DNA from: Terriglobia bacterium
GTDB taxonomy: Bacteria; Acidobacteriota; Terriglobia; 20CM-2-55-15
Reading direction: 5' to 3'
DNA length: 64,000 bases
Assembly: GCA_963664115.2 (NCBI GenBank)
Contig: CAXWPJ010000009.1
Span: 160,001-224,000 of the forward strand
Positions 42,763-62,121 of the stretch are shown in pieces (the stretch's first letter is position 1; every line of letters starts with the position of its first letter). The notes beneath the pieces were generated by a model, which did not search any database, was not told the DNA's origin, and saw nothing but the letters and a program-made list of their open reading frames with translations. A program made the translations under genes and the position numbers.

Positions 42763-43659
42763 CTACTTAAAAAACTTTCGAATCACGTCACGACCATCAG
42801 AATCCACGGATGGAACCAAGCCAGGGAACGATCTCGATTGAATCGGAAAGAGCCATCCCATCACAAGATGGTAGAGGGCAAACAACTCCAGCGAGAAGGG
42901 AACATAACCACCATATCCGAGGATCGGCATCTCAAACAGATGGAAGTAATCGAGGAAAGGAATCTGGTACGTCCATTTCGGATAGGACAGATAGTTCCAC
43001 ATCTCCCAAAAAAAGCCGCAGATCAGACACCCTAGACCCAGCGAAACAACAGGCCGCCAGTCCCCTTCCGCTATCGATCGCAAAATTGATCGGTGGCCCA
43101 GCGCGTCGTTGATTGGATCAACGATGAAGAACACTGACAACCAAACCAATGGGAAAAAGTACAAAGGCCAAACGAGTAAGCAAACCAACATAGCGATACC
43201 GGTGGCAGTAATTCCAAGATGGGCGCCACGTCCGATCGCGATCGAACCCATTGCCGGAAACTTCTGAACCCACCCAAGGCTGCTCACCCATTCTGCAGTC
43301 CCAAACACCGCGGGAATCACGGTCGAAAAACTCAAAGATGCCCAGAAAAAATACTCGAGATCGGTGAATTCGGCCCGCCCTTCATAGATCCAGTTACCGG
43401 TTCGCGCATTAATGAGCTCGAAGATCCACCAGGTCGGAGCGGATACTAAAAACAGGCCCAGATACTGACCCCGGCTCCGTGTCCACAACGACGTTCCCAG
43501 GCGCCGATAAGTCCACGCGTCGACGGTGATGCAGTAACCCAGCCAAAGCGGAAAAAACCCCCACTGCGTTCTCAGTTCGGAGAGCGACCAGTTCAGGGTC
43601 CAAAACACGGCAACTAGAACCAGACCGATCGTTCCCCGTAAAGGCCATCTCCTGATCAT
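42763..43659 (-). CDS. hypothetical multi-pass membrane protein
   Basis: About 8 hydrophobic helices with twice-repeated W..FE..N...W.Y / FWE.WN...W.Y motifs. Confidence 0.8.
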   Translation of the reverse strand: MIRRWPLRGTIGLVLVAVFWTLNWSLSELRTQWGFFPLWLGYCITVDAWTYRRLGTSLWTRSRGQYLGLFLVSAPTWWIFELINARTGNWIYEGRAEFTDLEYFFWASLSFSTVIPAVFGTAEWVSSLGWVQKFPAMGSIAIGRGAHLGITATGIAMLVCLLVWPLYFFPLVWLSVFFIVDPINDALGHRSILRSIAEGDWRPVVSLGLGCLICGFFWEMWNYLSYPKWTYQIPFLDYFHLFEMPILGYGGYVPFSLELFALYHLVMGWLFPIQSRSFPGLVPSVDSDGRDVIRKFFK

Positions 43660-46857: not shown

Positions 46858-47418
46858 CTATTGGTCTTCCAGTTCCGGACTGTCGGCTGTGGCCGGTTGG
46901 CCCAGCGCCCACCGGATAATTCCCGTCGAGTCGACGAAGAAAGATCGCTTGGATTCCATATCAGATGCAGGTTCCGCCATCAGGCTATAGGCGTCTGCAC
47001 TGGGACTGCCTCTCATGCGTATCCTGTAACCATTGTCGTCGAGCGATGGGTCCGTTTCCAGCGACAGCTCCTGGACCAATTCCTCTAAGGTCAGTGCGTA
47101 TCGACGGCGGAGCATCATGAAAGTGGCCTGGGCCAGGCTGATATCCCTGACGGCTTGAAGTCCCTGAGCCTCACTGGCACTCCGCACTTCGGCGAGCAAC
47201 AACTCCGCAGCAGCCGCGTTTGGACTTGTGGCGAAGCTCGAGATGATGTTTTCGAGAATGCGTTCGCTTTCTCCGAGTTGGCCGGCTTCGTTCGCGGCAA
47301 CCGCCTGATCGTACATTCGGGACGGATCATCGGCAGGCTCGAGTGCCCCACCATCCCCACCCGCACAAGCGAACAAAACCGTACAGAGCAAAAGTGCGAT
47401 CGTAAGTTTTCTCATCAC
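46858..47418 (-). CDS. lipoprotein with a TPR-like hairpin and a pilin-like C-terminal domain
   Basis: Lipobox LFAC; a helical repeat; then RDISLAQ..F.....RYA..LEEL, GYRI, AEPA, RSFFVDSTGIIR. Confidence 0.75.
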   Translation of the reverse strand: MMRKLTIALLLCTVLFACAGGDGGALEPADDPSRMYDQAVAANEAGQLGESERILENIISSFATSPNAAAAELLLAEVRSASEAQGLQAVRDISLAQATFMMLRRRYALTLEELVQELSLETDPSLDDNGYRIRMRGSPSADAYSLMAEPASDMESKRSFFVDSTGIIRWALGQPATADSPELEDQ

Positions 47419-48654: not shown

Positions 48655-48850
48655 AGGCGTTTGGAACTGGGCCTTCTGCGGTCTGCTGATAACTCTTCCA
48701 TTACAGTCGTCGTAATACCTGCCTAGTCCCGAAAGACTAAATTAACAATGGTTTCAACGCATGTGAAGACACTACCCGATGTCCGTAAATGCGTTTCGAC
48801 AGTTTCGACACTCTACCCTTGATCCTGAACGGCATGGGTGTGATGCTTTA

Positions 48851-48909
48851 GCCCGCTTGCAATCTACCACAGCTGCCCGCGCGGTGATTTTCAGGTAGAC
48901 AAGCGGGCA
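48851..48909 (+). promoter_or_regulatory. structured 5' leader of the DUF1538 operon
   Basis: GCCCGCTTG pairs with CAAGCGGGC and TCTACC with GGTAGA. An internal TGCCCGC competes for the same 3' arm. Confidence 0.4.
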
Positions 48910-48948: not shown

Positions 48949-50724
48949 ATGACCCAACACATTCGGTTCGGGAGCTATAACCGTGAACTGAACATCCACC
49001 TGGACCAGATCAGCTATAACGAGATGATCCCGCCCGTCACCTACGATGCGGCCGGCAACGAACTCCCTCAAAAACCGGAAGCGCTCTCACTCGGTGCAGG
49101 AGATGTCTATCGTCTACTGCGCCCCTATCTTACTCTCAGGTTCATCGATCAGTTCAAGGCGGTGATGCCGCTAGCCTTGTATCTGGTGTTGTTCCAGCTT
49201 TTCATTCTGCGACAGGCGGTGCAGGATGCCTGGATTATTTCGATCGGCCTGCTCGCAGTCGTCATGGGTTTGATGCTGTTTATGGAGGGGTTAAAGGTCG
49301 GTTTGATGCCATTCGGGGAAACGCTCGGCATTTCGCTGCCGGCCAAGGCAACGCTCGCCACCGTAGTGGCCGTCGTGTTCTTGCTGGGCATAGGCGTCAC
49401 GTTTGCGGAACCTGCAATTGGCGCGCTACAGACAGCGGGCTCACTGGTCAGTGTGTCCCAGGCGCCCTATCTCTACACATTGCTGACGGACTGGGCGGGT
49501 ACGCTTGTACTCGCGGTTGGTATCGGAGTCGGACTTGCCGCCGTGCTCGGCACGATACGCCTCATCTTCGGATGGAGCCTGAAACCCCTGATCTACGTCA
49601 CGCTTGCACCGGTTTTGGCAATCAGCGCCTACATGGCGCTCGATCCGGAATTGTCTAAAGTTCTCGGCCTTGCTTTCGATTCTGGCGCGGTGACGACGGG
49701 ACCCGTCACCGTACCGCTGGTTTTGTCCCTGGGAATCGGCATTGCCCATGCGGCGGGTAAGGGAACGGACTCGTTGTCCGGCTTCGGTATCGTCACGCTC
49801 GCATCTCTTTTCCCCATTATCGCAGTGATGGGGCTCACGCTCTATGTCGCCGGGCAGACAGACCCGGAATCGATCCTCGCCGCCGCAAACGAACTCCAGG
49901 CCGAAACGAGTGAGCTGCCCTGGTATCAATTGACGCCGGCTGTGGAGGTCATTGGCGGCATCCGCGCCATCATCCCGCTGGTGGTTTTTCTTTTGCTGGT
50001 GTTGCTCGTGCTGCTCAGGGAGCGCTTGCCCAACCCGAAAATCATTGGATTCGGCATTCTGCTCTGTGTGCTCGGTATGTGTATCTTCAATCTGGGCCTA
50101 GGTTATGGTCTTTCGAAGTTGGGTGGACAGAGCGGCGGCTTGGTTCCCGCAGCGTTTACAAGCATACAGGGCGTGGACGGTTCGCCTTTGTATTTCCTGG
50201 CACTGGGACTCGGCATTGCCATCGGCTTTGCCTGGCTCCTGGGCTTTGGAGCCACGTTGGCTGAACCTGCGCTGAACGCATTGGGTATCACAGTTGAGAA
50301 CCTAACCAACGGGTCTTTCAGGAAGTCGACGCTGATGTATGCAGTGTCTGTCGGTGTGGGCTTTGGTGTCGCAATCGGCGTAGCGAAGAACATATTCGAC
50401 ATTCCAATGGCGTGGCTTTTGATTCCGGGTTACTTGATCGCGGCTGGATTGACCGCCTTATCGAGTGAAGAGTTCGTCAACATCGCCTGGGACAGTGCAG
50501 GCGTCACGACAGGGCCCGTGACGGTCCCTTTGGTTCTGGCGATGGGACTCGGGTTTGGCAATGCACTCGGGGCAATTGAGGGATTCGGTATCCTGTCCAT
50601 GGCGTCGATCGGTCCCATCATTGCAGTTCTTTCAACCGGTCTCTATATTCGCTGGAAAATTGCCCGAAGGCATGCAAGAGCTGAAGCGGAAGACTACGAG
50701 GAGCCCACGGGTGCCATGGTATGA
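48949..50724 (+). CDS. fused double-DUF1538 membrane protein
   Basis: Two internal repeats: FAEPA/LAEPA, AFDSGAVTTGPVTVP/AWDSAGVTTGPVTVP, GFGI..AS..PIIAV. Confidence 0.88.
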   Translation: MTQHIRFGSYNRELNIHLDQISYNEMIPPVTYDAAGNELPQKPEALSLGAGDVYRLLRPYLTLRFIDQFKAVMPLALYLVLFQLFILRQAVQDAWIISIGLLAVVMGLMLFMEGLKVGLMPFGETLGISLPAKATLATVVAVVFLLGIGVTFAEPAIGALQTAGSLVSVSQAPYLYTLLTDWAGTLVLAVGIGVGLAAVLGTIRLIFGWSLKPLIYVTLAPVLAISAYMALDPELSKVLGLAFDSGAVTTGPVTVPLVLSLGIGIAHAAGKGTDSLSGFGIVTLASLFPIIAVMGLTLYVAGQTDPESILAAANELQAETSELPWYQLTPAVEVIGGIRAIIPLVVFLLLVLLVLLRERLPNPKIIGFGILLCVLGMCIFNLGLGYGLSKLGGQSGGLVPAAFTSIQGVDGSPLYFLALGLGIAIGFAWLLGFGATLAEPALNALGITVENLTNGSFRKSTLMYAVSVGVGFGVAIGVAKNIFDIPMAWLLIPGYLIAAGLTALSSEEFVNIAWDSAGVTTGPVTVPLVLAMGLGFGNALGAIEGFGILSMASIGPIIAVLSTGLYIRWKIARRHARAEAEDYEEPTGAMV

Positions 50725-51098
50725 CTAGAGAACTTACGACACTCACAGATGTTTCGATGATCACGTGCATCGTCCAGCGCGGGAAAGCGGACCGCGTCAT
50801 CCAGGCCGCCCAAGATGCCGGGGCCCAGGGTGCGACGGTCTATTATGGTTACGGTAGCGGCGTTCGTGAGCGGTTGGGGATTCTCGGGCTCGCGATCGAA
50901 GTCGAAAAAGAAATCATCGTGACACTGGTTGCCGATGATCAGGTCGATCGTATTTTTGAGCGGATGTACTTCGCGGCTGAACTAGATGTACCTGGGAACG
51001 GCATTATCTATGTCACCAAACTCGATAAAGCCGCCACATACATCCCCAAGGAAATTATCGAGCGCCTAAACGCCAAGGTATCGGAGTCGGCCCGGTGA
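50721..51098 (+). CDS. P-II-like signal transduction protein
   Basis: ITCIV.RG.AD....A...GAQGAT....YGSG, EKEII, PGNGIIYV. ATGA overlap with the upstream gene. Confidence 0.88.
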   Translation: MTRELTTLTDVSMITCIVQRGKADRVIQAAQDAGAQGATVYYGYGSGVRERLGILGLAIEVEKEIIVTLVADDQVDRIFERMYFAAELDVPGNGIIYVTKLDKAATYIPKEIIERLNAKVSESAR

Positions 51099-51439
51099 AG
51101 GGCATTATCGAAAATGCCAAGCTGATTACCTGCATCCTGCCAAAAGGAAAGGCGCAACTCGTCCAGAAGGCGTTGGTCGAAGAAAAGGGATTACACACTG
51201 CCAATTTTCACCATGGTCGTGGTGTTGGCAGCTTTTCACCCTTGACAGCCAGGGGTATGGGTGAGCAACAGGAAAAGGAGATTCTTGAAGTCAACGTGGC
51301 CGACGACAGGGCCGACGACCTATTCGAGTTCATGTTCTTCAAGGGCGAAATGGACCAGCCTCACGGCGGCATCATTTTCATGACCACCCTAGTCAATGGC
51401 ATGGGCATGGGTGTGCCGGACCTGTCGGGCGAAGGGTGA
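51095..51439 (+). CDS. second, divergent P-II-like protein
   Basis: LITCILPKG, GRGVG, EKEIL, PHGGIIFM. GTGA overlap with the upstream gene. Confidence 0.8.
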   Translation: MKGIIENAKLITCILPKGKAQLVQKALVEEKGLHTANFHHGRGVGSFSPLTARGMGEQQEKEILEVNVADDRADDLFEFMFFKGEMDQPHGGIIFMTTLVNGMGMGVPDLSGEG

Positions 51440-51539
51440 ACGCTTTCATCGGGCGTGTCCGGACGCGATTGCAACGGGCGCCGGCAGTGCCGCGGATCCG
51501 TTAGCCTGCGGTTCCACGGGAAAGAGGTATTGGAGACTC

Positions 51540-54062
51540 ATGGAACTGGACCTGGGATCCGTCGTACTTCTGCTCGCAGGACTCCTTCTCGCCTCCGCGC
51601 TGATATCGCTTCTCGCAGGCCGCACGGTGTTTCCATATACGGTCCTTCTGGTTGTCTTCGGCTTCGCTCTCCGCTTGATGTTCGCCGAATGGGAAGGCTT
51701 TGAATTTCTCGAATCGGAAATCGTCACGGAAATCGTATTGTTTGTTTTCCTGCCTACGTTACTTTTCGAATCCTCGTTCAATCTCGACTCCAAGCTTCTT
51801 TTCCGGAACATCGTTCCGGTACTGACCCTCGCGATCCCCGCCTTTCTTCTTTCGACGGCGATCGTGGGCTACCTCGGATCCTGGGCGCTGGGCATACCAC
51901 TCGCCACCGCACTTCTTTTTGGAGCACTTATCTCAGCCACCGATCCTGTGGCGGTCGTCGCTTTGTTCAAGGAACTTGGGGCCCCGAAGCGACTGATGGT
52001 GTTGGTTGAGGGTGAAAGCCTGTTCAACGACGCGACGGCGATCGTCCTGTTCAACGTACTGTTGGGAATCGTGGTGGGTGGAGCGGCGGCAACGCTGTCG
52101 CTGACCTCGGCCATCATCAACTTCCTTATCGTATTTATCGGCGGAATCGTTGTGGGCGCCATTATCGCTTTTACTTTTGCCCAGATCTTGTCTCTGGTGC
52201 GCGACAACGAGCTCGTTGAAATCACGCTGACGACGATAGTTGCGTACATGTCGTTCATCGTCGCCGAACACTACCTCCACGTTTCGGGTGTGATGGCGAC
52301 AGCAACAGCGGGCGTCATTCTGGGAGGGTGGGGGCGCACGAAGATTTCTCCATCTGTCGGCCATTTCATGCACTCGTTCTGGGAGTACCTCTCCTTTTTA
52401 GCAAATTCATTGATTTTCCTCCTTGTGGGACTCGTACTGAGCCCGGCCCTGATTCGCGACTCCTTCGTTGCGCTGCTTCTGGCGATACCCATCGTTTACT
52501 TTTCCCGTGCGTTCAGCATCGCCCTCGCAGTGCCTTTGGTCAACCGGACCCGGATGATCGAACCGATCGATATGCGGTATCGCCTGGTCATGTTCTGGGG
52601 GGGGCTCCGGGGAGCGTTGGCACTGGCGCTGGCCCTGAGCCTGCCACCGGACTTTGCAGCGAAGGAGTTGATACTGGTTTCTGCGATGGGCGTGGTCATG
52701 GCTACCCTGCTCGTCAACGCAGTGACCATAGGACCGCTGCTTCGAATGCTCGGCTTCGATCGACTCTCACCCGCTGAACTGTTTGCCCGATTCGAAAGCC
52801 TGCTGATGCTGAAGCGTGAGACCCGTTCCAAGCTGGGCCGCTTCGGGGAAGAAAGAGCGATCGCGCCCAGTATCGTCGACAGAGTCCGTACGAACTACCT
52901 GAACCGGGAATCACAGATCGAATCCGAACGCGAAGTATCGATGTCAGGCGAAAGTCAGCTCGAAGAGAAGGACCTTTTGCAGGTCGTGGCCCATCAGGCC
53001 CTGTGTGCCGAGAAGCAACATTATTGGGAAGAGTTCTATGAGGGCAATTTGCGCGAGACGGCCTACAAACAACTCATCCAGGACGTGGACTATCAGACCG
53101 ATCACGTTAAGGCATACGGCGAACTCCCAGAAACGTTCGAAGAGGCCGGCACCCGCGAGAGCACACTGGACCGCCTTCTCTACAAACTCGGGATATTCGG
53201 TTCCTACGTCCAGACGCGCAAAGTGAGTCAGATGGCGGACCGCTTCGAGCAGAACAGCGCGAAGGCCGCCGGCGCCCGTTCGGTAGGATCGCTGTTGGAT
53301 AGACTGCGCAAGGAAGAAACCATTGACGAAGACGCATATGCAGCGGTGCGTCACTACTATCAATCCCGTCACGACAAGGCACAACGCGAGCTGGCATCAA
53401 TGGCATCGGACTATCCCGAGTATGTCGAACGCACCCAGGAGTTCCTGCTGACGCGCAGTTGCCTCCACAACGAAGAAGCCACACTGAAAATGTTAAGGGA
53501 ACTCGGGCTCGTTCCCGATAATGTTTACCTCCAACACAAAGAAGAGATCCAGGATGGCCTCGCGCGGCTCCGCTCCCGGCCTGTTGAAACTCTGCAGCTC
53601 GATCCCTCGGCCTTGCTGGCTCAGATTCCTCTGTTCGAGCACTGCGGTAATAATGCTCTGCAGCGCGTGGCCGCGCTTCTCGAATCCGAGTCGTTTGCCG
53701 AAGGCGACCGGATCGTGCGGCAGGAAGAGTCGGGAGACTCGATGTACGTCATCGCCCGGGGTGCCGTGCAGATACTCAGGGAAGTTGAGAATCAAGCGCC
53801 CGATTTGTTGGCTATTCTGGTGGCCGGAGGATTTTTCGGAGAGATTGCCTTGCTCGCCGAGTCACCCCGAACAGCCACAGTGCGGGCGGCAAGCCCGTGT
53901 ACAATGCTGCGACTGCGTCGTCAAAATCTCGAATCACTGATGGATGCGACGCCTGACTTAAGAAGTTCGGTTCAAAGAGCTTACAAGGAACGCCTGGCTG
54001 TATTGGAATCCTTGGGGAATCAGGAAACCTCAGCCACTGAAGGCCACGCCTCTCCGGCATAG
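51540..54062 (+). CDS. CPA1 Na+/H+ antiporter with a C-terminal cyclic-nucleotide-binding domain
   Basis: ATDPVAV, EGESLFNDATA, HVSGV, WGGLRGAL; a long helical cytoplasmic region; FGEIALL..SPRTATVRA. ATG 51540 follows GGAG. Confidence 0.93.
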   Translation: MELDLGSVVLLLAGLLLASALISLLAGRTVFPYTVLLVVFGFALRLMFAEWEGFEFLESEIVTEIVLFVFLPTLLFESSFNLDSKLLFRNIVPVLTLAIPAFLLSTAIVGYLGSWALGIPLATALLFGALISATDPVAVVALFKELGAPKRLMVLVEGESLFNDATAIVLFNVLLGIVVGGAAATLSLTSAIINFLIVFIGGIVVGAIIAFTFAQILSLVRDNELVEITLTTIVAYMSFIVAEHYLHVSGVMATATAGVILGGWGRTKISPSVGHFMHSFWEYLSFLANSLIFLLVGLVLSPALIRDSFVALLLAIPIVYFSRAFSIALAVPLVNRTRMIEPIDMRYRLVMFWGGLRGALALALALSLPPDFAAKELILVSAMGVVMATLLVNAVTIGPLLRMLGFDRLSPAELFARFESLLMLKRETRSKLGRFGEERAIAPSIVDRVRTNYLNRESQIESEREVSMSGESQLEEKDLLQVVAHQALCAEKQHYWEEFYEGNLRETAYKQLIQDVDYQTDHVKAYGELPETFEEAGTRESTLDRLLYKLGIFGSYVQTRKVSQMADRFEQNSAKAAGARSVGSLLDRLRKEETIDEDAYAAVRHYYQSRHDKAQRELASMASDYPEYVERTQEFLLTRSCLHNEEATLKMLRELGLVPDNVYLQHKEEIQDGLARLRSRPVETLQLDPSALLAQIPLFEHCGNNALQRVAALLESESFAEGDRIVRQEESGDSMYVIARGAVQILREVENQAPDLLAILVAGGFFGEIALLAESPRTATVRAASPCTMLRLRRQNLESLMDATPDLRSSVQRAYKERLAVLESLGNQETSATEGHASPA

Positions 54063-54075
54063 CAGGAGTCGATCG

Positions 54076-55752
54076 ATGGATACATTTAACTCATTCCTGA
54101 CGGTCATGAACAACGTGCTCTGGCACAACGTTGTGCTCTTCGTCATCCTCGGTCTCGGACTTCTGTTGACGGTATGGACGAAATTTGCTCCGATCGTTGC
54201 ATTCACCCACGGAATCGCCGTTATTCGAGGCAAGTTCGACGACAAGGACGACCCGGGTGCCATCAATCACTTCCAGGCCCTGTCCGCGGCACTGTCGGCA
54301 ACCGTCGGGCTAGGGAACATTGGGGGCGTCGCTCTGGCCATCTCCCTGGGAGGACCGGGCGCCGTGTTCTGGATGTGGGTCGTCGGCTTAGCGGGAATGG
54401 CCATCAAAACCACGGAAGTGACGCAATCCATGCTCTATCGGAACATGGCAGACCCGGACAATCCGCACGGCGGGCCCATGTTTGTCGTCAGCCGCGGTCT
54501 CGCCGAGATGAATCCCGCACTCAAGGGCCTGGGACGCTGGATTGGCTACATTTTCTGCCTCACGCTGATGGTATCGACCGTCACTGGCGGCAATATGTTT
54601 CAGGCCTGGAACGTGGGCAACGTGACCGCGTTAAACTTCGGCATTCCCTCGCTCTTGACGGGAATCGTGCTGGCAATCATCACCGGGATGGTGATTATCG
54701 GAGGAATTCAGCGAATCGGGGCTGTCGCCGGACGCCTCGTGCCGTTCATGTGCGGCCTCTACCTCCTGGCATCGGTCTATGTACTAATCTTGAACTTCAG
54801 CGCGATCCCCGGACTGTTTCGAATGATCTTTGTTTCCGCGTTCAGCCCGGTCGAGGCCCAGGGCGCGTTTCTGGGTGGAACTTTCGGCTATGCCTTTCTG
54901 CTGGGAATGCGACGGGCTCTGTTCTCGAACGAAGCAGGGCAGGGTTCCGCACCCATCGCGCACGCTGCCGCCCGCACCAACGAACCGGTTCGGGAGGGCA
55001 TCGTTGCAGGCTTGGGACCCTTTATCGACACGATTATCGTGTGTACGCTGACGGCACTCGTGATCCTGGCCAGTGGGGCGTGGAACCGCGGACCCGAAAC
55101 CGAATTCGAAAGCCCTCCCGAAATCGTAGAAGTCTCGCCGGGAGCGTGGACAATAGAAACTTCGGCGCTCGACTCGAACGTGGAATGGCAGGCCGGTCAG
55201 AACGTATTCGTGGTGATCGAAACGGGCATCCAGAATGAGCAGACAGGCGCAACGGTCGATCAGATTTCCGGCATAATCGTTACCTCCGGCGACACTTATG
55301 CCGTCGAATGGAACACATGGACTGGATCCCAAGCCCCCACCGTCAGCGGCTCCGGCATTTACATGAACTACACCGGCGCCAGCCTTACAAGTTATGCGTT
55401 CGATCGCGTCCAGCCGGGCCTGGGCCGTTGGCTCGTCACGCTGGCGTCCTGGCTGTTCGCGATATCGACGATGATCTCCTGGAGTTACTACGGGGAGCAG
55501 GGCATCATCTTCATGGCCGGCGCCAAGTGGGTCCGTACGTACAAATTTATTTACTGCCTGCTGATCATCGTGGCCACCTCGGGCTTCATCACGACCGACC
55601 AGCAACTCGACGGCCTGACCGGAATTGGGACCGCCGTCATGTTGTTCGCGAACATCCCTATCATCCTGATCTTCAGCCGACAGGCGATGTCGCACTATCA
55701 CGAATATCTCGGACGCCTGCGCTCCGGGGAAATGCGGCGGACCATTTCATAG
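54076..55752 (+). CDS. alanine/glycine:cation symporter (AGCS) with an inserted soluble domain
   Basis: ATVGLGNIGGVA, GGPGAVFWMW, GGPM, RALFSNEAGQGS, FIDTIIVCT, FAIST.ISWSYYG. Confidence 0.93.
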   Translation: MDTFNSFLTVMNNVLWHNVVLFVILGLGLLLTVWTKFAPIVAFTHGIAVIRGKFDDKDDPGAINHFQALSAALSATVGLGNIGGVALAISLGGPGAVFWMWVVGLAGMAIKTTEVTQSMLYRNMADPDNPHGGPMFVVSRGLAEMNPALKGLGRWIGYIFCLTLMVSTVTGGNMFQAWNVGNVTALNFGIPSLLTGIVLAIITGMVIIGGIQRIGAVAGRLVPFMCGLYLLASVYVLILNFSAIPGLFRMIFVSAFSPVEAQGAFLGGTFGYAFLLGMRRALFSNEAGQGSAPIAHAAARTNEPVREGIVAGLGPFIDTIIVCTLTALVILASGAWNRGPETEFESPPEIVEVSPGAWTIETSALDSNVEWQAGQNVFVVIETGIQNEQTGATVDQISGIIVTSGDTYAVEWNTWTGSQAPTVSGSGIYMNYTGASLTSYAFDRVQPGLGRWLVTLASWLFAISTMISWSYYGEQGIIFMAGAKWVRTYKFIYCLLIIVATSGFITTDQQLDGLTGIGTAVMLFANIPIILIFSRQAMSHYHEYLGRLRSGEMRRTIS

Positions 55753-57500: not shown

Positions 57501-58874
57501 TCATTGATCGAGGACCGGAACCTGTTCCAGAAATCGTGAATCCCGGGTGCCAAGCGCTCCGACAATCCGAATCGGCATATTCGAACGGATCCGCACGTAT
57601 CCCGATTGGAAAGTCTCGGGCAAAACTCTAGTGTGCTGACCCCTCGGAGAGAGCGATACTTCTTCCACTTCCATGACAGTGCCGTCGGCTTCTACGAACT
57701 CGATCGTGACTTCGGTCTGGACGGCCAGCAGTTCGTTGGGATTGGCGATGGCAAGCCCGGAGTAGTAGGTGCTCCCACCCAGAGCCAACGGAATGACCCA
57801 TGGACCCGCCGACGCAGGACCGATGGGGTATGACATCGACGACTGGGTAAAGGTCCCCTGTCCGATGGCGGCAACCTCCACGTTCCCGACCAGAGCAACC
57901 GCCTGGTTCTGGGAGTCGCGAATCCTTATGTACCCATCCACAACGGGAGCCGGGAAAATGGCGATCGTGACAACGCCAAACAGTTCCTGAACGTCACTGC
58001 GAATACCCTCGCCCGGTCCCAGCGTACGCTCGACCACTTCTCCGACAACATTTCCGGAACCGTCCTCAGCAATGAGTTCGACGGTGAGTGTTTCCTCAGT
58101 GGAATTGACGAGGTTCAGCGTCGATCGATACCCCCCGCCGAAAACGAAGAACGGAGCCAGATACAGACCTGTAGTCTCCCCCACAGCTTGGGCGTCCAGA
58201 ACGTTCGAGAAGAGCGGCGTCTCCACTCTCTGCCAGGCAACGACAGCGTCACCCGAGCTCAGGCGAAGGTAGCCTTCGAAGGCACGCCCCCCCGCACCGT
58301 TGTCGGGCAGGACATCGCTGAAGGCTTCAGAGATCTTCAACGTGACGTGCCTGTTGGCACCCAGAGTGATAGGGACGCTCCCCACCGAAACGCCGTCGAG
58401 ACCAATCAGTTCGAGCGTAACGCTGGCTGGAAAGAAACCTCCCGGCCTCGCAATCGTGACGAGGGTATCGGTGTGCCCCAACTCTTTGAAGCCCGTGTCC
58501 ACACGGACGTCGGGAAGGGTGAGTGACGTCGCGGGTAAAACAGGCTCAGCGATCGTGAGACGGTCCGGGTCTCCGTGAGCCAGAACGACGTCCACGCTTG
58601 AGCCACCGGAATCCACTCGGATCCAACCCGAATCCGGACGCACACCCCCGACAAGAATTTCTTCCAGCAGCAATGCACGTTGTTCACCTGCAACCAGAGT
58701 CACCTGCCCACCCAAGACGCTACCGGTGTCACCATCTGTCGCCGACACCTCGACGATGGCCGTCGAATTTCCTGAATTGACGAACGAAAGCCCGATGTAG
58801 TCGTTGGGACCTGTGTCGAAAAGAGGTAGAAAGCTCTGGAGCAGCAACGTCAGGAAAAGAGCCGGCATTGTCAT
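57501..58874 (-). CDS. exported hypothetical protein with about 4 repeats of a beta-sandwich unit
   Basis: Hydrophobic N-terminus from ATG 58874. Repeated [GL]..VN/AN...V.......DG and G[WY].R[IVL] units. Confidence 0.8.
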   Translation of the reverse strand: MTMPALFLTLLLQSFLPLFDTGPNDYIGLSFVNSGNSTAIVEVSATDGDTGSVLGGQVTLVAGEQRALLLEEILVGGVRPDSGWIRVDSGGSSVDVVLAHGDPDRLTIAEPVLPATSLTLPDVRVDTGFKELGHTDTLVTIARPGGFFPASVTLELIGLDGVSVGSVPITLGANRHVTLKISEAFSDVLPDNGAGGRAFEGYLRLSSGDAVVAWQRVETPLFSNVLDAQAVGETTGLYLAPFFVFGGGYRSTLNLVNSTEETLTVELIAEDGSGNVVGEVVERTLGPGEGIRSDVQELFGVVTIAIFPAPVVDGYIRIRDSQNQAVALVGNVEVAAIGQGTFTQSSMSYPIGPASAGPWVIPLALGGSTYYSGLAIANPNELLAVQTEVTIEFVEADGTVMEVEEVSLSPRGQHTRVLPETFQSGYVRIRSNMPIRIVGALGTRDSRFLEQVPVLDQ

Positions 58875-58875
58875 G

Positions 58876-60033
58876 CTAGTGGTCCCCGTCAAACAGACTG
58901 TACCTTATTGAGGCTCTTGCGAGCGCGTTGGACTTTTTCAAGGATGTCGGAAGCCTTAGCGGTCCAGATGAACGGCTTTGGATTCTGGTTATGGCCGGCG
59001 ACGTAGTTTTCCACGGCCCTTATTAACTCCGGAACAGAGCAGAAAACCCCACGCCGAAGCCGTTGTTCAGAAAGATCCCGGAAGAAGCGTTCAACCATGT
59101 TGAGCCAGGATGCGCTGGTTGGCGTGAAGTGCACATGAAATCGTGAGTTGCGCTTGAGCCAGTTGACGGCTTTCTGGTGTTTGTGCGTCGCATAGTTGTC
59201 GCAGATGATATGGATCTGCTTGTCTTTGGGCACGGAGCGTTTGATTGTATTGAGAAACCGAATCCACTCCTGATGCCGATGCTTGGGCATGCAGGTCCCA
59301 ATCACTGAACCGTCCAGGGTATTGAGCGCGGCGAACAACGTGGTCGTTCCATTGCGCTTGTAATCGTGGGTCATGGTGCCACCGCGCCCCTTCTTCAAAG
59401 GTAACCCGGGTTGCGTACGATCCAGGGCCTGCATCTGGCTCTTCTCATCGCAGGATAAGACGATGGCGTTTTCCGGCGGACTCAGATACAGACCGACCAC
59501 ATCCTCCAGCTTCTCGGCAAATTGTTTGTCGTTGGACAGTTTGAATGTGCGTGACAGATGTGGCTTCAGTCCATGGGCCCGCCAAATCCTTCCGACTGTC
59601 GCATCGCTGACTCCGGTCGCCGCCGCCATCAAAGACCGGCTCCAATGCGTCGCGTTGGGGGGCTTCTCTTCAATCGTCTTCTTCACGATCCGGGCCCGCT
59701 TCCGGGCGCTGATCGAGGGAATTCGTCCACTTCGGTGCGCGTCCTTTTCGATCCCTGCCAGTCCATGTCGCACAAAACGATCGCGCCATCGCCCGGCCTT
59801 CTGGCGCGTAATCTTCAGCCGGGCTGCGATATCCTGATTATTCAGCCCTTCGTCGGCCAGTAAGATAATTCGGGATCGTTCTGCCAACCGTACCGTCGTA
59901 CTCCGGCTTCGACTCAGTCGTTTCAATTCCTTGCGCTGTTCGTTATCCAATTCAATCGTTGCTGCTTTTCTCATACCTACATATGACGTTGGAAAAGCAA
60001 TTACGTTACATTAATTGTGATGGACTACACTAG
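58876..60033 (-). mobile_element. IS630-family element, variant B copy 2
   Basis: CTAG at both ends. Confidence 0.96.
58889..59974 (-). CDS. IS630-family DDE transposase
   Basis: Protein identical to 31829-32914. Confidence 0.97.
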   Translation of the reverse strand: MRKAATIELDNEQRKELKRLSRSRSTTVRLAERSRIILLADEGLNNQDIAARLKITRQKAGRWRDRFVRHGLAGIEKDAHRSGRIPSISARKRARIVKKTIEEKPPNATHWSRSLMAAATGVSDATVGRIWRAHGLKPHLSRTFKLSNDKQFAEKLEDVVGLYLSPPENAIVLSCDEKSQMQALDRTQPGLPLKKGRGGTMTHDYKRNGTTTLFAALNTLDGSVIGTCMPKHRHQEWIRFLNTIKRSVPKDKQIHIICDNYATHKHQKAVNWLKRNSRFHVHFTPTSASWLNMVERFFRDLSEQRLRRGVFCSVPELIRAVENYVAGHNQNPKPFIWTAKASDILEKVQRARKSLNKVQSV

Positions 60034-60264: not shown

Positions 60265-62121
60265 CTAGTCCCAAAACAAGCGCATAACCAGTCCGCCGAG
60301 GCCCAGTTCGCGCCGATAGAATTCGAGGCATAGAATCCCGTTCCCGGATGGCCTGTTCCAGGTATCGAGTTTCTGTTGAATCTGTTTCAGTTCAGCCTCG
60401 CTGGTGTTGGACGGTTGACAGAAACCGGGACCTCGATCGCCCGGGCTCAGAGTCATGATCGGGTCAACATCGCAGAGGCTGACGCAACACATCCACCCCG
60501 CGGAACAAGACCGGCAACCACCGGTTCCAGGCCAGGATCCGGAACAGAATGCGCCGCCCGGTGCGCACGAGTTGGCACGGCACAAGCATGAAAGCGTTCA
60601 AGAAGGTTTTGAACTCCATGCGCAGCACGGTTTGCTTCTCAGCCTGATATTTTTGGCCCCAACGTCCGGTTTCGGGAAGCAGCAATGCAAACCACGCTTT
60701 CAGTGTCCAGGCCAGTGACGCGATCACCATGTAGGCCCAGTTGCTGGTCTGATCTCCGACCGGCATCCGCAACGCCTGAACGCCGTTCTTCAACTGCTCA
60801 ATGAGATTCTCCTGATTGCACCGTTGATTGGCACGCATCACAATCTGGTCGGCCGGATCCGAACGGTTGGTAATGTAGAAGAAGTACCGGATGTCGTCAA
60901 ACAACACCTGCTCTCCTTTGGCCACCGACAGATTCTTCCGCACCACGACGACACGGTAGTCCCGATCGCAGGCTCCGGGTCGATACCGAAACTCGGCCAC
61001 ATCCTCACCCTGCAAGCGGATATTGTCGAAACCGCGCTGCCGAACGATCTCTTCCTTCACGTTGTCGGGACGTTGGCGCGGTTCGGTCGCCACGTCGTAT
61101 TTCGCGGGCCGTTCCAGGCGCTTCCACTGGCGCGGCTCCAGTTCATCGGCCCGGGCCTTCAGGTTCGCCATCGCGTCAATCCCGAATATGAAACCCACCT
61201 GCTGGTCGTCCCATCCGTCCAGATGCCGGGTCTGGCTGAAGTCCGTGTCCCCGCGCAGCAGGATCTGGCGAAACCCCGCATGCCGGCACAATGCGATGGC
61301 TTGGTCGAACCGGACCGCGGCTCCTTCATGCGACGGCCGGTTGCCGCTACGATTGACCAGATACAGCGGTTCGGCGGTGTTGGCCAGCGAGATCATCAGC
61401 GGGTGATATCCCCACGTCCCGTCGTAGGCCACGTCCATCCCTTGCTTGCATTCCCCCGTGGTTTCGGCCAGTGTCCCGTCCGCGTCCAACACCGCTTCTT
61501 CGAAAAACGCCGCCGGTTGCTGTCGCCAGACTCCGAGCCGGACTTGATTGGTTGCCTCCATCAGACACTCCACGTCGTCGGCCTCGAATCTCCGGCAGAA
61601 GTCTCCCGCCGTCGTCGGATCCGGAATCCGTTGCGCTCCCAGCGCATCCAGATACACCGCATCGTTGCGCCGCAGTTCGATGTCTTCCAGGCACGTTCCT
61701 CCGCTCAAGGCGTTGTAGGCGATGTTCAGCACGTGATCCGACTCGTGATACGGCAGGTGCCGCTTCAACACATGCACGCCCTTGTCGATGGCTTCGATCA
61801 GCCCGGTCCGCCGCGCCACCAGTTGCATCGTCCCGATACCACCAACCGATGTGCCCCGCGTCCGCTCTCCCATCTCGTACTGAATGTTGCTCGCCGAAAA
61901 CATCGGCTCTACCTGATCCGTCCAATGCCGGTCCCCAAGCCGACGTTCGATTCGCCGCTTGCGGTTCCTCATGTTCTTGCGCGTATAATCGTTCATCTGA
62001 AATGCCTCCTTTTCCGAAGAATCTGTTCAAGGTTTTTTTCGCACGGAGAGGGGGCATTTCGGGTACTTCCGCTCTTATTGCACTATCATTTCCTCGTCAA
62101 TCACGCTTGTTCAGGGGCTAG
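60265..62121 (-). mobile_element. IS1380-family element
   Basis: Ends CTAG-TCCCAAAACAAGCG and CGCTTGTTCAGGGG-CTAG; CTAG is duplicated. Confidence 0.93.
60464..61996 (-). CDS. IS1380-family transposase
   Basis: LDADGT, GYHPL, RSGN..SH, LRGDTDF, FYITN, QRCNQENLIEQLK. Confidence 0.93.
   Translation of the reverse strand: MNDYTRKNMRNRKRRIERRLGDRHWTDQVEPMFSASNIQYEMGERTRGTSVGGIGTMQLVARRTGLIEAIDKGVHVLKRHLPYHESDHVLNIAYNALSGGTCLEDIELRRNDAVYLDALGAQRIPDPTTAGDFCRRFEADDVECLMEATNQVRLGVWRQQPAAFFEEAVLDADGTLAETTGECKQGMDVAYDGTWGYHPLMISLANTAEPLYLVNRSGNRPSHEGAAVRFDQAIALCRHAGFRQILLRGDTDFSQTRHLDGWDDQQVGFIFGIDAMANLKARADELEPRQWKRLERPAKYDVATEPRQRPDNVKEEIVRQRGFDNIRLQGEDVAEFRYRPGACDRDYRVVVVRKNLSVAKGEQVLFDDIRYFFYITNRSDPADQIVMRANQRCNQENLIEQLKNGVQALRMPVGDQTSNWAYMVIASLAWTLKAWFALLLPETGRWGQKYQAEKQTVLRMEFKTFLNAFMLVPCQLVRTGRRILFRILAWNRWLPVLFRGVDVLRQPLRC

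Follow-up and report, generated by a model that had tools for sequence, protein, structure and literature searches.

A 64,000-nucleotide stretch from a Terriglobia bacterium (Acidobacteriota; assembly GCA_963664115.2, contig CAXWPJ010000009.1, positions 160,001 to 224,000), referred to here as the window, carries five consecutive genes on the forward strand, the first three of which form the core that concerns us: a double-DUF1538 gene and two genes for P-II-like proteins. The first core gene (48949-50724, +) encodes a 591-residue fused membrane transporter resembling UmpA plus UmpB, in which Pfam family PF07556 is found in two stretches (347 bits against a gathering cut-off of 22.6). It is followed by P-II-a (50721-51098, +; 125 residues), which matches PF00543 with 36 bits, above the 25-bit cut-off, and by P-II-b (51095-51439, +; 114 residues, GTG start), which at 17.6 bits stays below it. 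Then come a CPA1 antiporter with a cyclic nucleotide monophosphate (cNMP)-binding domain (51540-54062, +; 840 residues; PF00999, Na_H_Exchanger, and PF00027, cNMP_binding) and an AgcS symporter for Na+ and amino acids, that is alanine or glycine (54076-55752, +; 558 residues; PF01235, Na_Ala_symp). The coordinates and junctions of the original prediction hold when read from the sequence: stop and start codons overlap by four bases at the first two junctions, 100 and 13 bases separate the genes at the next two, and all genes run in one direction. The 100-base gap assumes that the antiporter begins at the ATG at 51540, the start position of its orthologues; an alternative start at 51396, given by the open reading frame (ORF) finder, would overlap P-II-b. 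A promoter and terminator scan, uninformative overall, found no terminator-like site in the gaps 51440-51539 and 54063-54075. G+C and third-position G+C (GC3) are similar across the five genes, and DUF1538, P-II-a and P-II-b are each single-copy in the 4.9-Mb genome.

Do the five genes make up one system? The original prediction held that they do, and that the idea should be dropped if the antiporter and symporter were not linked to the others in other genomes. A contig scan confirmed 202 stretches, the best 80 of which represent 79 loci at 60-95% identity; the locus counts rest on these. Both P-II genes lie directly after DUF1538 in 76 of the 79 loci. In the remaining three the contig ends less than 300 bases past DUF1538, and two of these show the start of P-II-a. 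The other two genes fare differently. A CPA1 antiporter is next to the core in four of 62 loci with at least 3.4 kb of downstream sequence: L001, the closest related locus, which is titled Terriglobia (Acidobacteriota) and belongs to the window's genus; L010 (36% identity); and L035 and L040 (33%, lacking the cNMP domain). AgcS lies downstream in two of 52 loci with at least 5 kb (L001 and L015), and all five genes occur together in one of 79, namely L001. Among 40 relatives the five-gene string is found in two, G001 and G003, which keep the order and belong to the same genus as the window. Clustering of flanking ORFs gave lineage-bound neighbours only, the commonest mixed cluster being met in 24 of the 79 loci, with no constant place. 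What is conserved is a set of three genes and not five, the fused double-DUF1538 gene with its two P-II-like genes; the antiporter and symporter are separable local neighbours. What survives of the original interpretation is the tie between DUF1538 and the two P-II genes, together with an intact-looking cNMP cassette in the antiporter; the five-gene module, unlinked outside one genus and with a K+ channel in the same slot in sister genomes, does not.

The association reaches well beyond the fused subfamily. Split pairs of the UmpA/B type have one P-II gene directly downstream in 28 of the 30 best-scoring loci, the other two lying at contig ends. Among the best 12 loci of NF041627, three of which repeat genomes of the 30-locus set, a P-II gene adjoins in 11; the twelfth, L141, is a true miss with no P-II within about 700 bases. 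All four plasmid records opened, of six matches, show DUF1538 followed by an annotated 'P-II family nitrogen regulator', and in two Clostridia plasmid records this partner has two domains. One protein, P0279, is a clean natural fusion of P-II-a and P-II-b, and three-domain P-II chains exist in which only the middle domain is clearly P-II-a-like. Because the linkage holds in fused, split and plasmid loci, P-II is a general partner of the DUF1538 family, in one-, two- and three-domain forms. Chains of about 380-400 residues with up to three P-II-like domains (P0286, P0287, P0289-P0292) include three named Treponema. Apparent DUF1538-P-II fusions (P0276-P0278, P0284) seem to stem from frameshifts or faulty assembly and were excluded; no P-II domain was found within a DUF1538 chain in 150 representatives, and when 26 long or partial DUF1538 chains were scanned, 25 had no further Pfam domain and one had weak sub-cut-off matches. 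PF07556 is present in 69 of 251 genomes sampled from the gammaproteobacterial class of G041. No UmpA above the equivalog cut-off occurred in 400 genomes, so the linkage counts describe relatives of the Halomonas genes and not those genes themselves. Five genomes (G043, G044, G075, G254, G258) hold two DUF1538 systems each, one fused and of this subfamily, the other split or fused but shorter; the two may differ in role. The neighbourhood of DUF1538 and P-II is already displayed in RefSeq annotation, and full-text literature searches returned no study of the pairing, which subscription reviews of P-II-like families may nonetheless list. The three-gene core is best described as a widespread, apparently unstudied pairing of P-II with a transporter family that has one published activity.

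Aligned over 251 columns (E 8e-29), the two DUF1538 halves share 33% identity. As the original prediction had noted, the duplication is marked by two motifs, and each half contains both: AEP at residues 153-155 and 438-440, and DSxxVTTGPVTVP at 244-256 and 515-527. None of 127 repeats, taken from fused and split proteins, departs from E154, D244, T250 or T254. The invariant membrane acids are E154 and D244 in the first half and E439 and D515 in the second, beside few invariant bases; mean column identity of the protein is 68%. The AlphaFold2 model is confident, with a predicted local distance difference test (pLDDT) score of 92 and a predicted template modelling (pTM) score of 0.89 for the whole protein and a pLDDT of 91 for a single repeat, and it has about seven membrane helices per repeat with breaks at AEP and TTGPVT. 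Model, hydropathy and invariant columns agree on two seven-helix units with conserved acidic and polar residues, as in UmpAB. Mean loop charges over 70 sequences alternate between basic and acidic and flip between the halves, which fits inverted halves with 14 helices and both termini inside, and we infer that E154, D244, E439 and D515 together form the ion site. Which known fold does this resemble? The whole model gave no Foldseek match at E <= 0.001, and the best VIA hits were at noise level, both in the wide search (Z 6.8, root-mean-square deviation 7.1, 176 aligned residues, Na+/Ca2+ exchanger 3v5s) and in a second look (Z 4.8). A single repeat likewise gave no Foldseek match and a noise-level VIA wide hit (Z 6.7) on a 58-residue hairpin, and PDB sequence searches with DUF1538 returned no match and, in a second search, two chance matches. 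No solved structure matching DUF1538 was found by sequence or fold, which does not by itself prove a new fold.

The first 40-60 residues of the transporter (window 48949-49130) are typical of the two-P-II subfamily, with I5, F7 and S22 nearly invariant, and most long and protist homologues align only from residue 40-60 on. The P-II pair may dock on this N-terminal segment. The protist homologues themselves are fused double-DUF1538 proteins in EukProt sets, to which five of ten long representatives looked up belong (P0153, P0159, P0133, P0161, P0182; 43-47% identity); they include Paulinella, Stephanoeca, Lentomonas and Namystynia, and contamination is possible. Borrelia BB0017 is a YitT/DUF2179 protein and does not belong to this system (PMC6516651).

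How P-II-like are the two small proteins? Profiles built from them match solved P-IIs, down to E 1.6e-6 for P-II-a and at 8.8e-5 for P-II-b. They are 38-39% identical to each other, and mean column identity is 68% for P-II-a, equal to that of DUF1538, against 43% for P-II-b. The reference for residue comparison was the genome's own canonical P-II, a separate GlnK-like gene elsewhere in the genome, on contig C5, beside a gene that from its N-terminal motif is presumably amtB-like. Both proteins keep the canonical G35, G37, K58 and G89, and P-II-a also T29 and G87. Five canonical residues, Q39, K58, K90, R101 and R103, serve in the binding of 2-oxoglutarate, Mg-ATP and phosphate; of these only K58 is present in both, which sets the pair apart from canonical GlnB/GlnK. 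The original prediction of short T-loops lacking the uridylylated Tyr is borne out: both loops are five residues shorter than in the canonical protein and Tyr-free, with Ile and Glu at the Tyr51 column, and neither protein thus has a full-length T-loop with a modifiable Tyr51. A Tyr does occur at position 52 in 32 of 70 P-II-b relatives, where it aligns to canonical position 46, not 51. The P-II-a T-loop is short and highly conserved, with a hydrophobic tip (GxGVRERLGxLG) that is common to the single P-IIs of split DUF1538 systems, and the invariant residues of P-II-a are G45, G47, L52, G53, K63 and E64. P-II-b has an invariant R42-G43 pair and a PHGG B-loop; its R53 (61 of 70) and G54 (62 of 70) align to canonical R47-G48, Arg47 being the residue with which GlnK plugs AmtB. 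Position 46 of P-II-b is basic in 61 of 70 relatives and Ser in the window copy. Because the G27/T29 side of the nucleotide cleft is kept in P-II-a and not in P-II-b, a mixed trimer of the two would have unequal pockets, as in NifI1/NifI2.

What does the transporter carry? The original prediction stated that DUF1538 has no known substrate, which the literature corrects: UmpAB of Halomonas zhaodongensis, of the same family, is published as a two-component Na+(Li+,K+)/H+ antiporter (PMC5484666). In that report umpA and umpB jointly, and neither singly, rescue Escherichia coli KNabc to 0.4 M NaCl; the two proteins co-precipitate and are described as an obligate heterodimer; and vesicles exchange Na+, K+ and Li+ for H+ with K0.5 values of 0.26-0.46 mM (PMC5484666). 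The main text of the paper has no occurrence of PII or P-II, and its supplementary Table S1 could mention neighbours (PMC5484666). A second source presents UmpAB as a proposed salt adaptation, in a passage that does not mention P-II (PMC12093952), and DUF1538 and AgcS both appear in a top-20 list of growth-pH predictors (PMC13255231). We lean, by a modest degree, towards the three-gene cassette being a P-II-gated cation/H+ exchanger of the UmpAB type, controlled by a mixed P-II trimer. The fused protein would exchange Na+ or K+ for H+; P-II-a and P-II-b would form a mixed trimer, dock on the cytoplasmic face of the transporter and gate it on a signal, probably of the adenylate type. P-II-a would anchor the trimer through its invariant hydrophobic T-loop, and P-II-b would plug the pathway with its equivalent of GlnK Arg47. 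A mixed trimer would suit a pseudo-two-fold transporter.

Several points weigh against this reading. The transporter scores far below both NCBIfam equivalogs (199 of 490 bits for NF041627, 148 of 500 for NF041628), so that the functional assignment is a transfer from UmpA/UmpB, a distant subfamily. No CPA1 match is present in 58 of the 62 loci with room for one, and protist homologues of DUF1538 are listed. K90, R101 and R103 are missing from both P-IIs, and position 38 of P-II-a is not basic; nucleotide binding may therefore be weak or absent. The same type of screen has reportedly given Na+/H+ activity to RDD, MFS, CDF and UPF0118 proteins. The UmpAB result itself is one paper, with KNabc growth and vesicles and no purified protein, and UmpAB was active in E. 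coli without any P-II, so that P-II is dispensable for its activity (PMC5484666).

How did the core come to lie next to an antiporter and a symporter? Regions from eight relatives were compared. In G007, G013, G017 and G021 the antiporter is preceded by a K+ channel (Ion_trans_2 plus TrkA), downstream of the same divergent EEP-family gene, and in G004, of the window's genus, AgcS is intact, the channel is broken and little of the antiporter is left. In the window a decayed 5' (pore) part of an MthK-like channel gene (48673-48873, +) lies between the EEP-family gene and DUF1538, with a BLASTN match of 43 nucleotides at 79% (E 2.9e-4). None of 300 shuffles reaches the local alignment of the 294 bases upstream of DUF1538 with the pore part of the G004 channel, and the same upstream stretches of L001 and G003 likewise surpass all 300; with four channels from other genera, two to six of 300 shuffles are as good as the window stretch. 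The 100 bases that follow P-II-b were considered as a further channel remnant and discarded, since 23-112 of 300 shuffles aligned equally well, and the window genome has no close copy of the K+ channel, the best match being 29%. Because sister genomes hold the channel at this site and its decayed 5' end persists upstream, the cassette probably entered by insertion into the channel gene, ahead of an SOS1-like antiporter that was already resident. A quick unrooted tree of 73 DUF1538 rows (70 from set A3, the partial G003 and G021 frames and L010, with fragmentary loci excluded) puts the window copy inside a group with 100% support, in which 19 of the 23 rows are Pseudomonadota, and the G021 copy elsewhere; on this tree the cassette was probably gained sideways.

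DUF1538 is above cut-off in three of the 40 relatives (G001, G003, G021). Close antiporter orthologues (at least 68%) occur in eight, only two of them beside DUF1538, and several are interrupted or frameshifted; close AgcS orthologues (at least 69%) occur in 14, only three of these with DUF1538. Of the members of the genus, G002 and G004 lack a DUF1538 match; G002 has an interrupted antiporter and G004 a remnant of one. DUF1538 is frameshifted in G003 and G021 and the antiporter is interrupted in G007 as well, some of these breaks possibly being assembly errors. AgcS and antiporter lie 15 kb apart in G013, 23 kb in G017 and 415 kb in G007. Across relatives AgcS accompanies a CoA ligase, which in the window is found downstream of it, and the simplest account is that AgcS was brought alongside earlier in the window's genus. 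In two further acidobacterial genomes the cassette is near AgcS, at a distance of 1.4 kb in L015 and about 9 kb in G021. CPA1 follows the core on three separate branches, against about 0.03-0.06 expected by a rough count, and in L010 an NhaB gene lies 1.3 kb beyond CPA1. The recurrence of CPA1, this NhaB and the AgcS genes near the L015 and G021 cassettes suggest a shared salt and pH theme, not a fixed system; in the window's genus a single transcript may span the five genes, as a salt/pH cluster of recent origin. The L010 cluster (L010:3766-9005), from a marine gammaproteobacterium, is an independent assembly of core, 36%-identical cNMP antiporter and NhaB. A BCCT transporter is present in the same region in G021 (L090:13224-14816), where it adjoins the cassette, and in G013 (L096:10462-12057).

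The antiporter aligns with Arabidopsis SOS1 over residues 9-683 (E 1.4e-64) and with entry 8j2m to residue 801. A CPA1 membrane domain, a cytosolic helical domain and a C-terminal cNMP-binding domain make it SOS1/SLC9C1-like, and it shows a GESLFND ion motif and a complete-looking cNMP cassette (FGE...RTA). A literature search on bacterial SOS1-like proteins returned nothing. The genome encodes seven adenylate/guanylate cyclase matches and one DAC. The symporter belongs to the AGCS family by TIGR00835 (395.6 bits against a cut-off of 272.65) and matches the solved archaeal AgcS 6cse at E 3.4e-79; it has a loop of about 95 residues (window 55080-55370) that is absent from 6cse. Further along the window, just downstream, are two transposase-like ORFs (58889-59974 and 60464-61996), which we take to be of the IS630 and IS1380 types; related loci are rich in insertion sequences too. 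Three conserved ORFs without a Pfam match, all on the minus strand, encode a secreted-looking protein of 463 residues (57501-58892), a lipoprotein with a weak BamD-like match (46858-47418) and a membrane protein of 298 residues (42763-43659).

Is the core a cation exchanger, or something else under P-II control? One alternative, which we consider unlikely, is that the P-II pair gates the transporter and the true cargo is a nutrient or anion (bicarbonate, phosphate, an organic acid) moved with Na+ or H+, the Na+/H+ exchange of UmpAB being a side activity. The KNabc screen accepts many unrelated families, and the helix breaks at AEP and the Thr-rich TTGPVT in the model resemble the substrate sites of Na+-coupled carriers. 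Many carriers of the system are autotrophs by title (Thiothrix, Chromatiaceae, Nitrospinota), and both established P-II-gated transporters, AmtB and SbtA, carry nutrients (10.1101/2023.08.10.552651). Against it stands the sole experiment on the family, which shows cation/H+ exchange at submillimolar K0.5, and the four invariant acids with few invariant bases favour cations. Carriers also include OM182, Halieaceae and SAR86, presumably heterotrophs. Gene context hints at Na+ and K+ as well: a K+ channel was replaced, CPA1 occurs in three lineages, L010 has NhaB and the family is a growth-pH predictor.

The P-IIs might also not gate the transporter directly, acting as separate homotrimers or relaying its state elsewhere, with co-location reflecting co-expression only. 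The activity of UmpAB without P-II and the much lower conservation of P-II-b than of P-II-a and DUF1538 fit this picture, which is nevertheless quite improbable: stop and start codons overlap, the linkage is almost complete across phyla whether P-II has one, two or three domains, GlnK-AmtB and SbtB-SbtA set a precedent, and no third gene accompanies the cassette. Very improbable is the view that all five genes are one selected, nucleotide-gated sodium module, in which cAMP controls the antiporter and DUF1538 is under a P-II heteromer. It can draw on the tight spacing without a terminator-like site in the two gaps, the order kept in G001 and G003, CPA1 beside the core in three lineages, the cassette near AgcS in L015 and G021, the cyclase and DAC matches and the joint appearance of AgcS and DUF1538 in the pH list. 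Yet the single complete locus of 79 is from the same genus, most close CPA1 and AgcS orthologues lie apart from DUF1538, the two genes being 15-415 kb from each other in three genomes, and G002, G003 and G004 show losses and frameshifts within the genus; synteny largely refutes the five-gene model.

Gating by P-II is known for transporters of ammonium and of bicarbonate. Tentatively, and with confidence a little short of even, DUF1538/UmpAB with P-II could be a third and very widespread P-II-gated class, the first to place monovalent-cation and pH homeostasis under P-II, on a transporter whose fold is unsolved and whose fused form would also occur in diverse protists; in this subfamily an asymmetric heterotrimer, with P-II-a anchoring and P-II-b plugging, would solve the mismatch between three-fold and two-fold symmetry. 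If so, salt and pH control would be tied to the energy or nucleotide state of the cell, and the assays of UmpAB, the one characterised member, would have lacked its likely regulator. P-II forms of one, two and three domains make a ready series in which to study the control of a two-fold carrier by a three-fold sensor, and the five-gene arrangement chiefly shows how a salt/pH cluster is assembled by insertion.

How does the locus compare with known systems? Like SOS1 and SLC9C1, the window antiporter is a CPA1 exchanger with a cyclic-nucleotide-binding domain, for which cNMP control is predicted; in contrast to them it is bacterial, has 840 residues and no voltage sensor, and stands outside the DUF1538 core. 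With UmpAB the transporter shares two homologous seven-helix DUF1538 units working as a pair and conserved Gly, Pro, Thr and acidic residues. It differs in that the units form one chain, a single 591-residue ORF instead of two overlapping genes, with a 60-residue N-terminal extension and scores far below the equivalog cut-offs, and in that two P-II genes are coupled to it at the window locus. GlnK-AmtB and SbtB-SbtA share with the core the P-II fold and the coupling of a P-II gene to a transporter gene, which is conserved here (76/79, 28/30 and 4/4). P-II-b keeps the GlnK Arg47 equivalent, and the 2-oxoglutarate residues are lost as in SbtB. The window transporter, however, is unrelated to AmtB and SbtA, has no solved fold match and goes with two distinct P-IIs instead of one; both known systems are three-fold, trimer on trimer, whereas it is a pseudo-two-fold single chain. 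In SbtB, T-loop arginines are reported to serve both nucleotide binding and plugging (10.1101/2023.08.10.552651). No chain named SbtB was among the 24, 39 and 25 PDB matches of the P-II searches, and the window neighbour is not SbtA. The top phmmer match of P-II-a is entry 9p1x (E 1.3e-4), which we take to be NifI1. The NifI heterotrimer is described as two NifI1 and one NifI2 with unequal pockets (10.1101/2025.09.09.675011). NifI proteins keep their ADP, ATP and 2-oxoglutarate residues and act on soluble nitrogenase, while the window P-IIs lack these residues and sit beside a membrane transporter; what the two have in common is the tandem P-II genes, for which NifI1/NifI2 provides the heterotrimer precedent.

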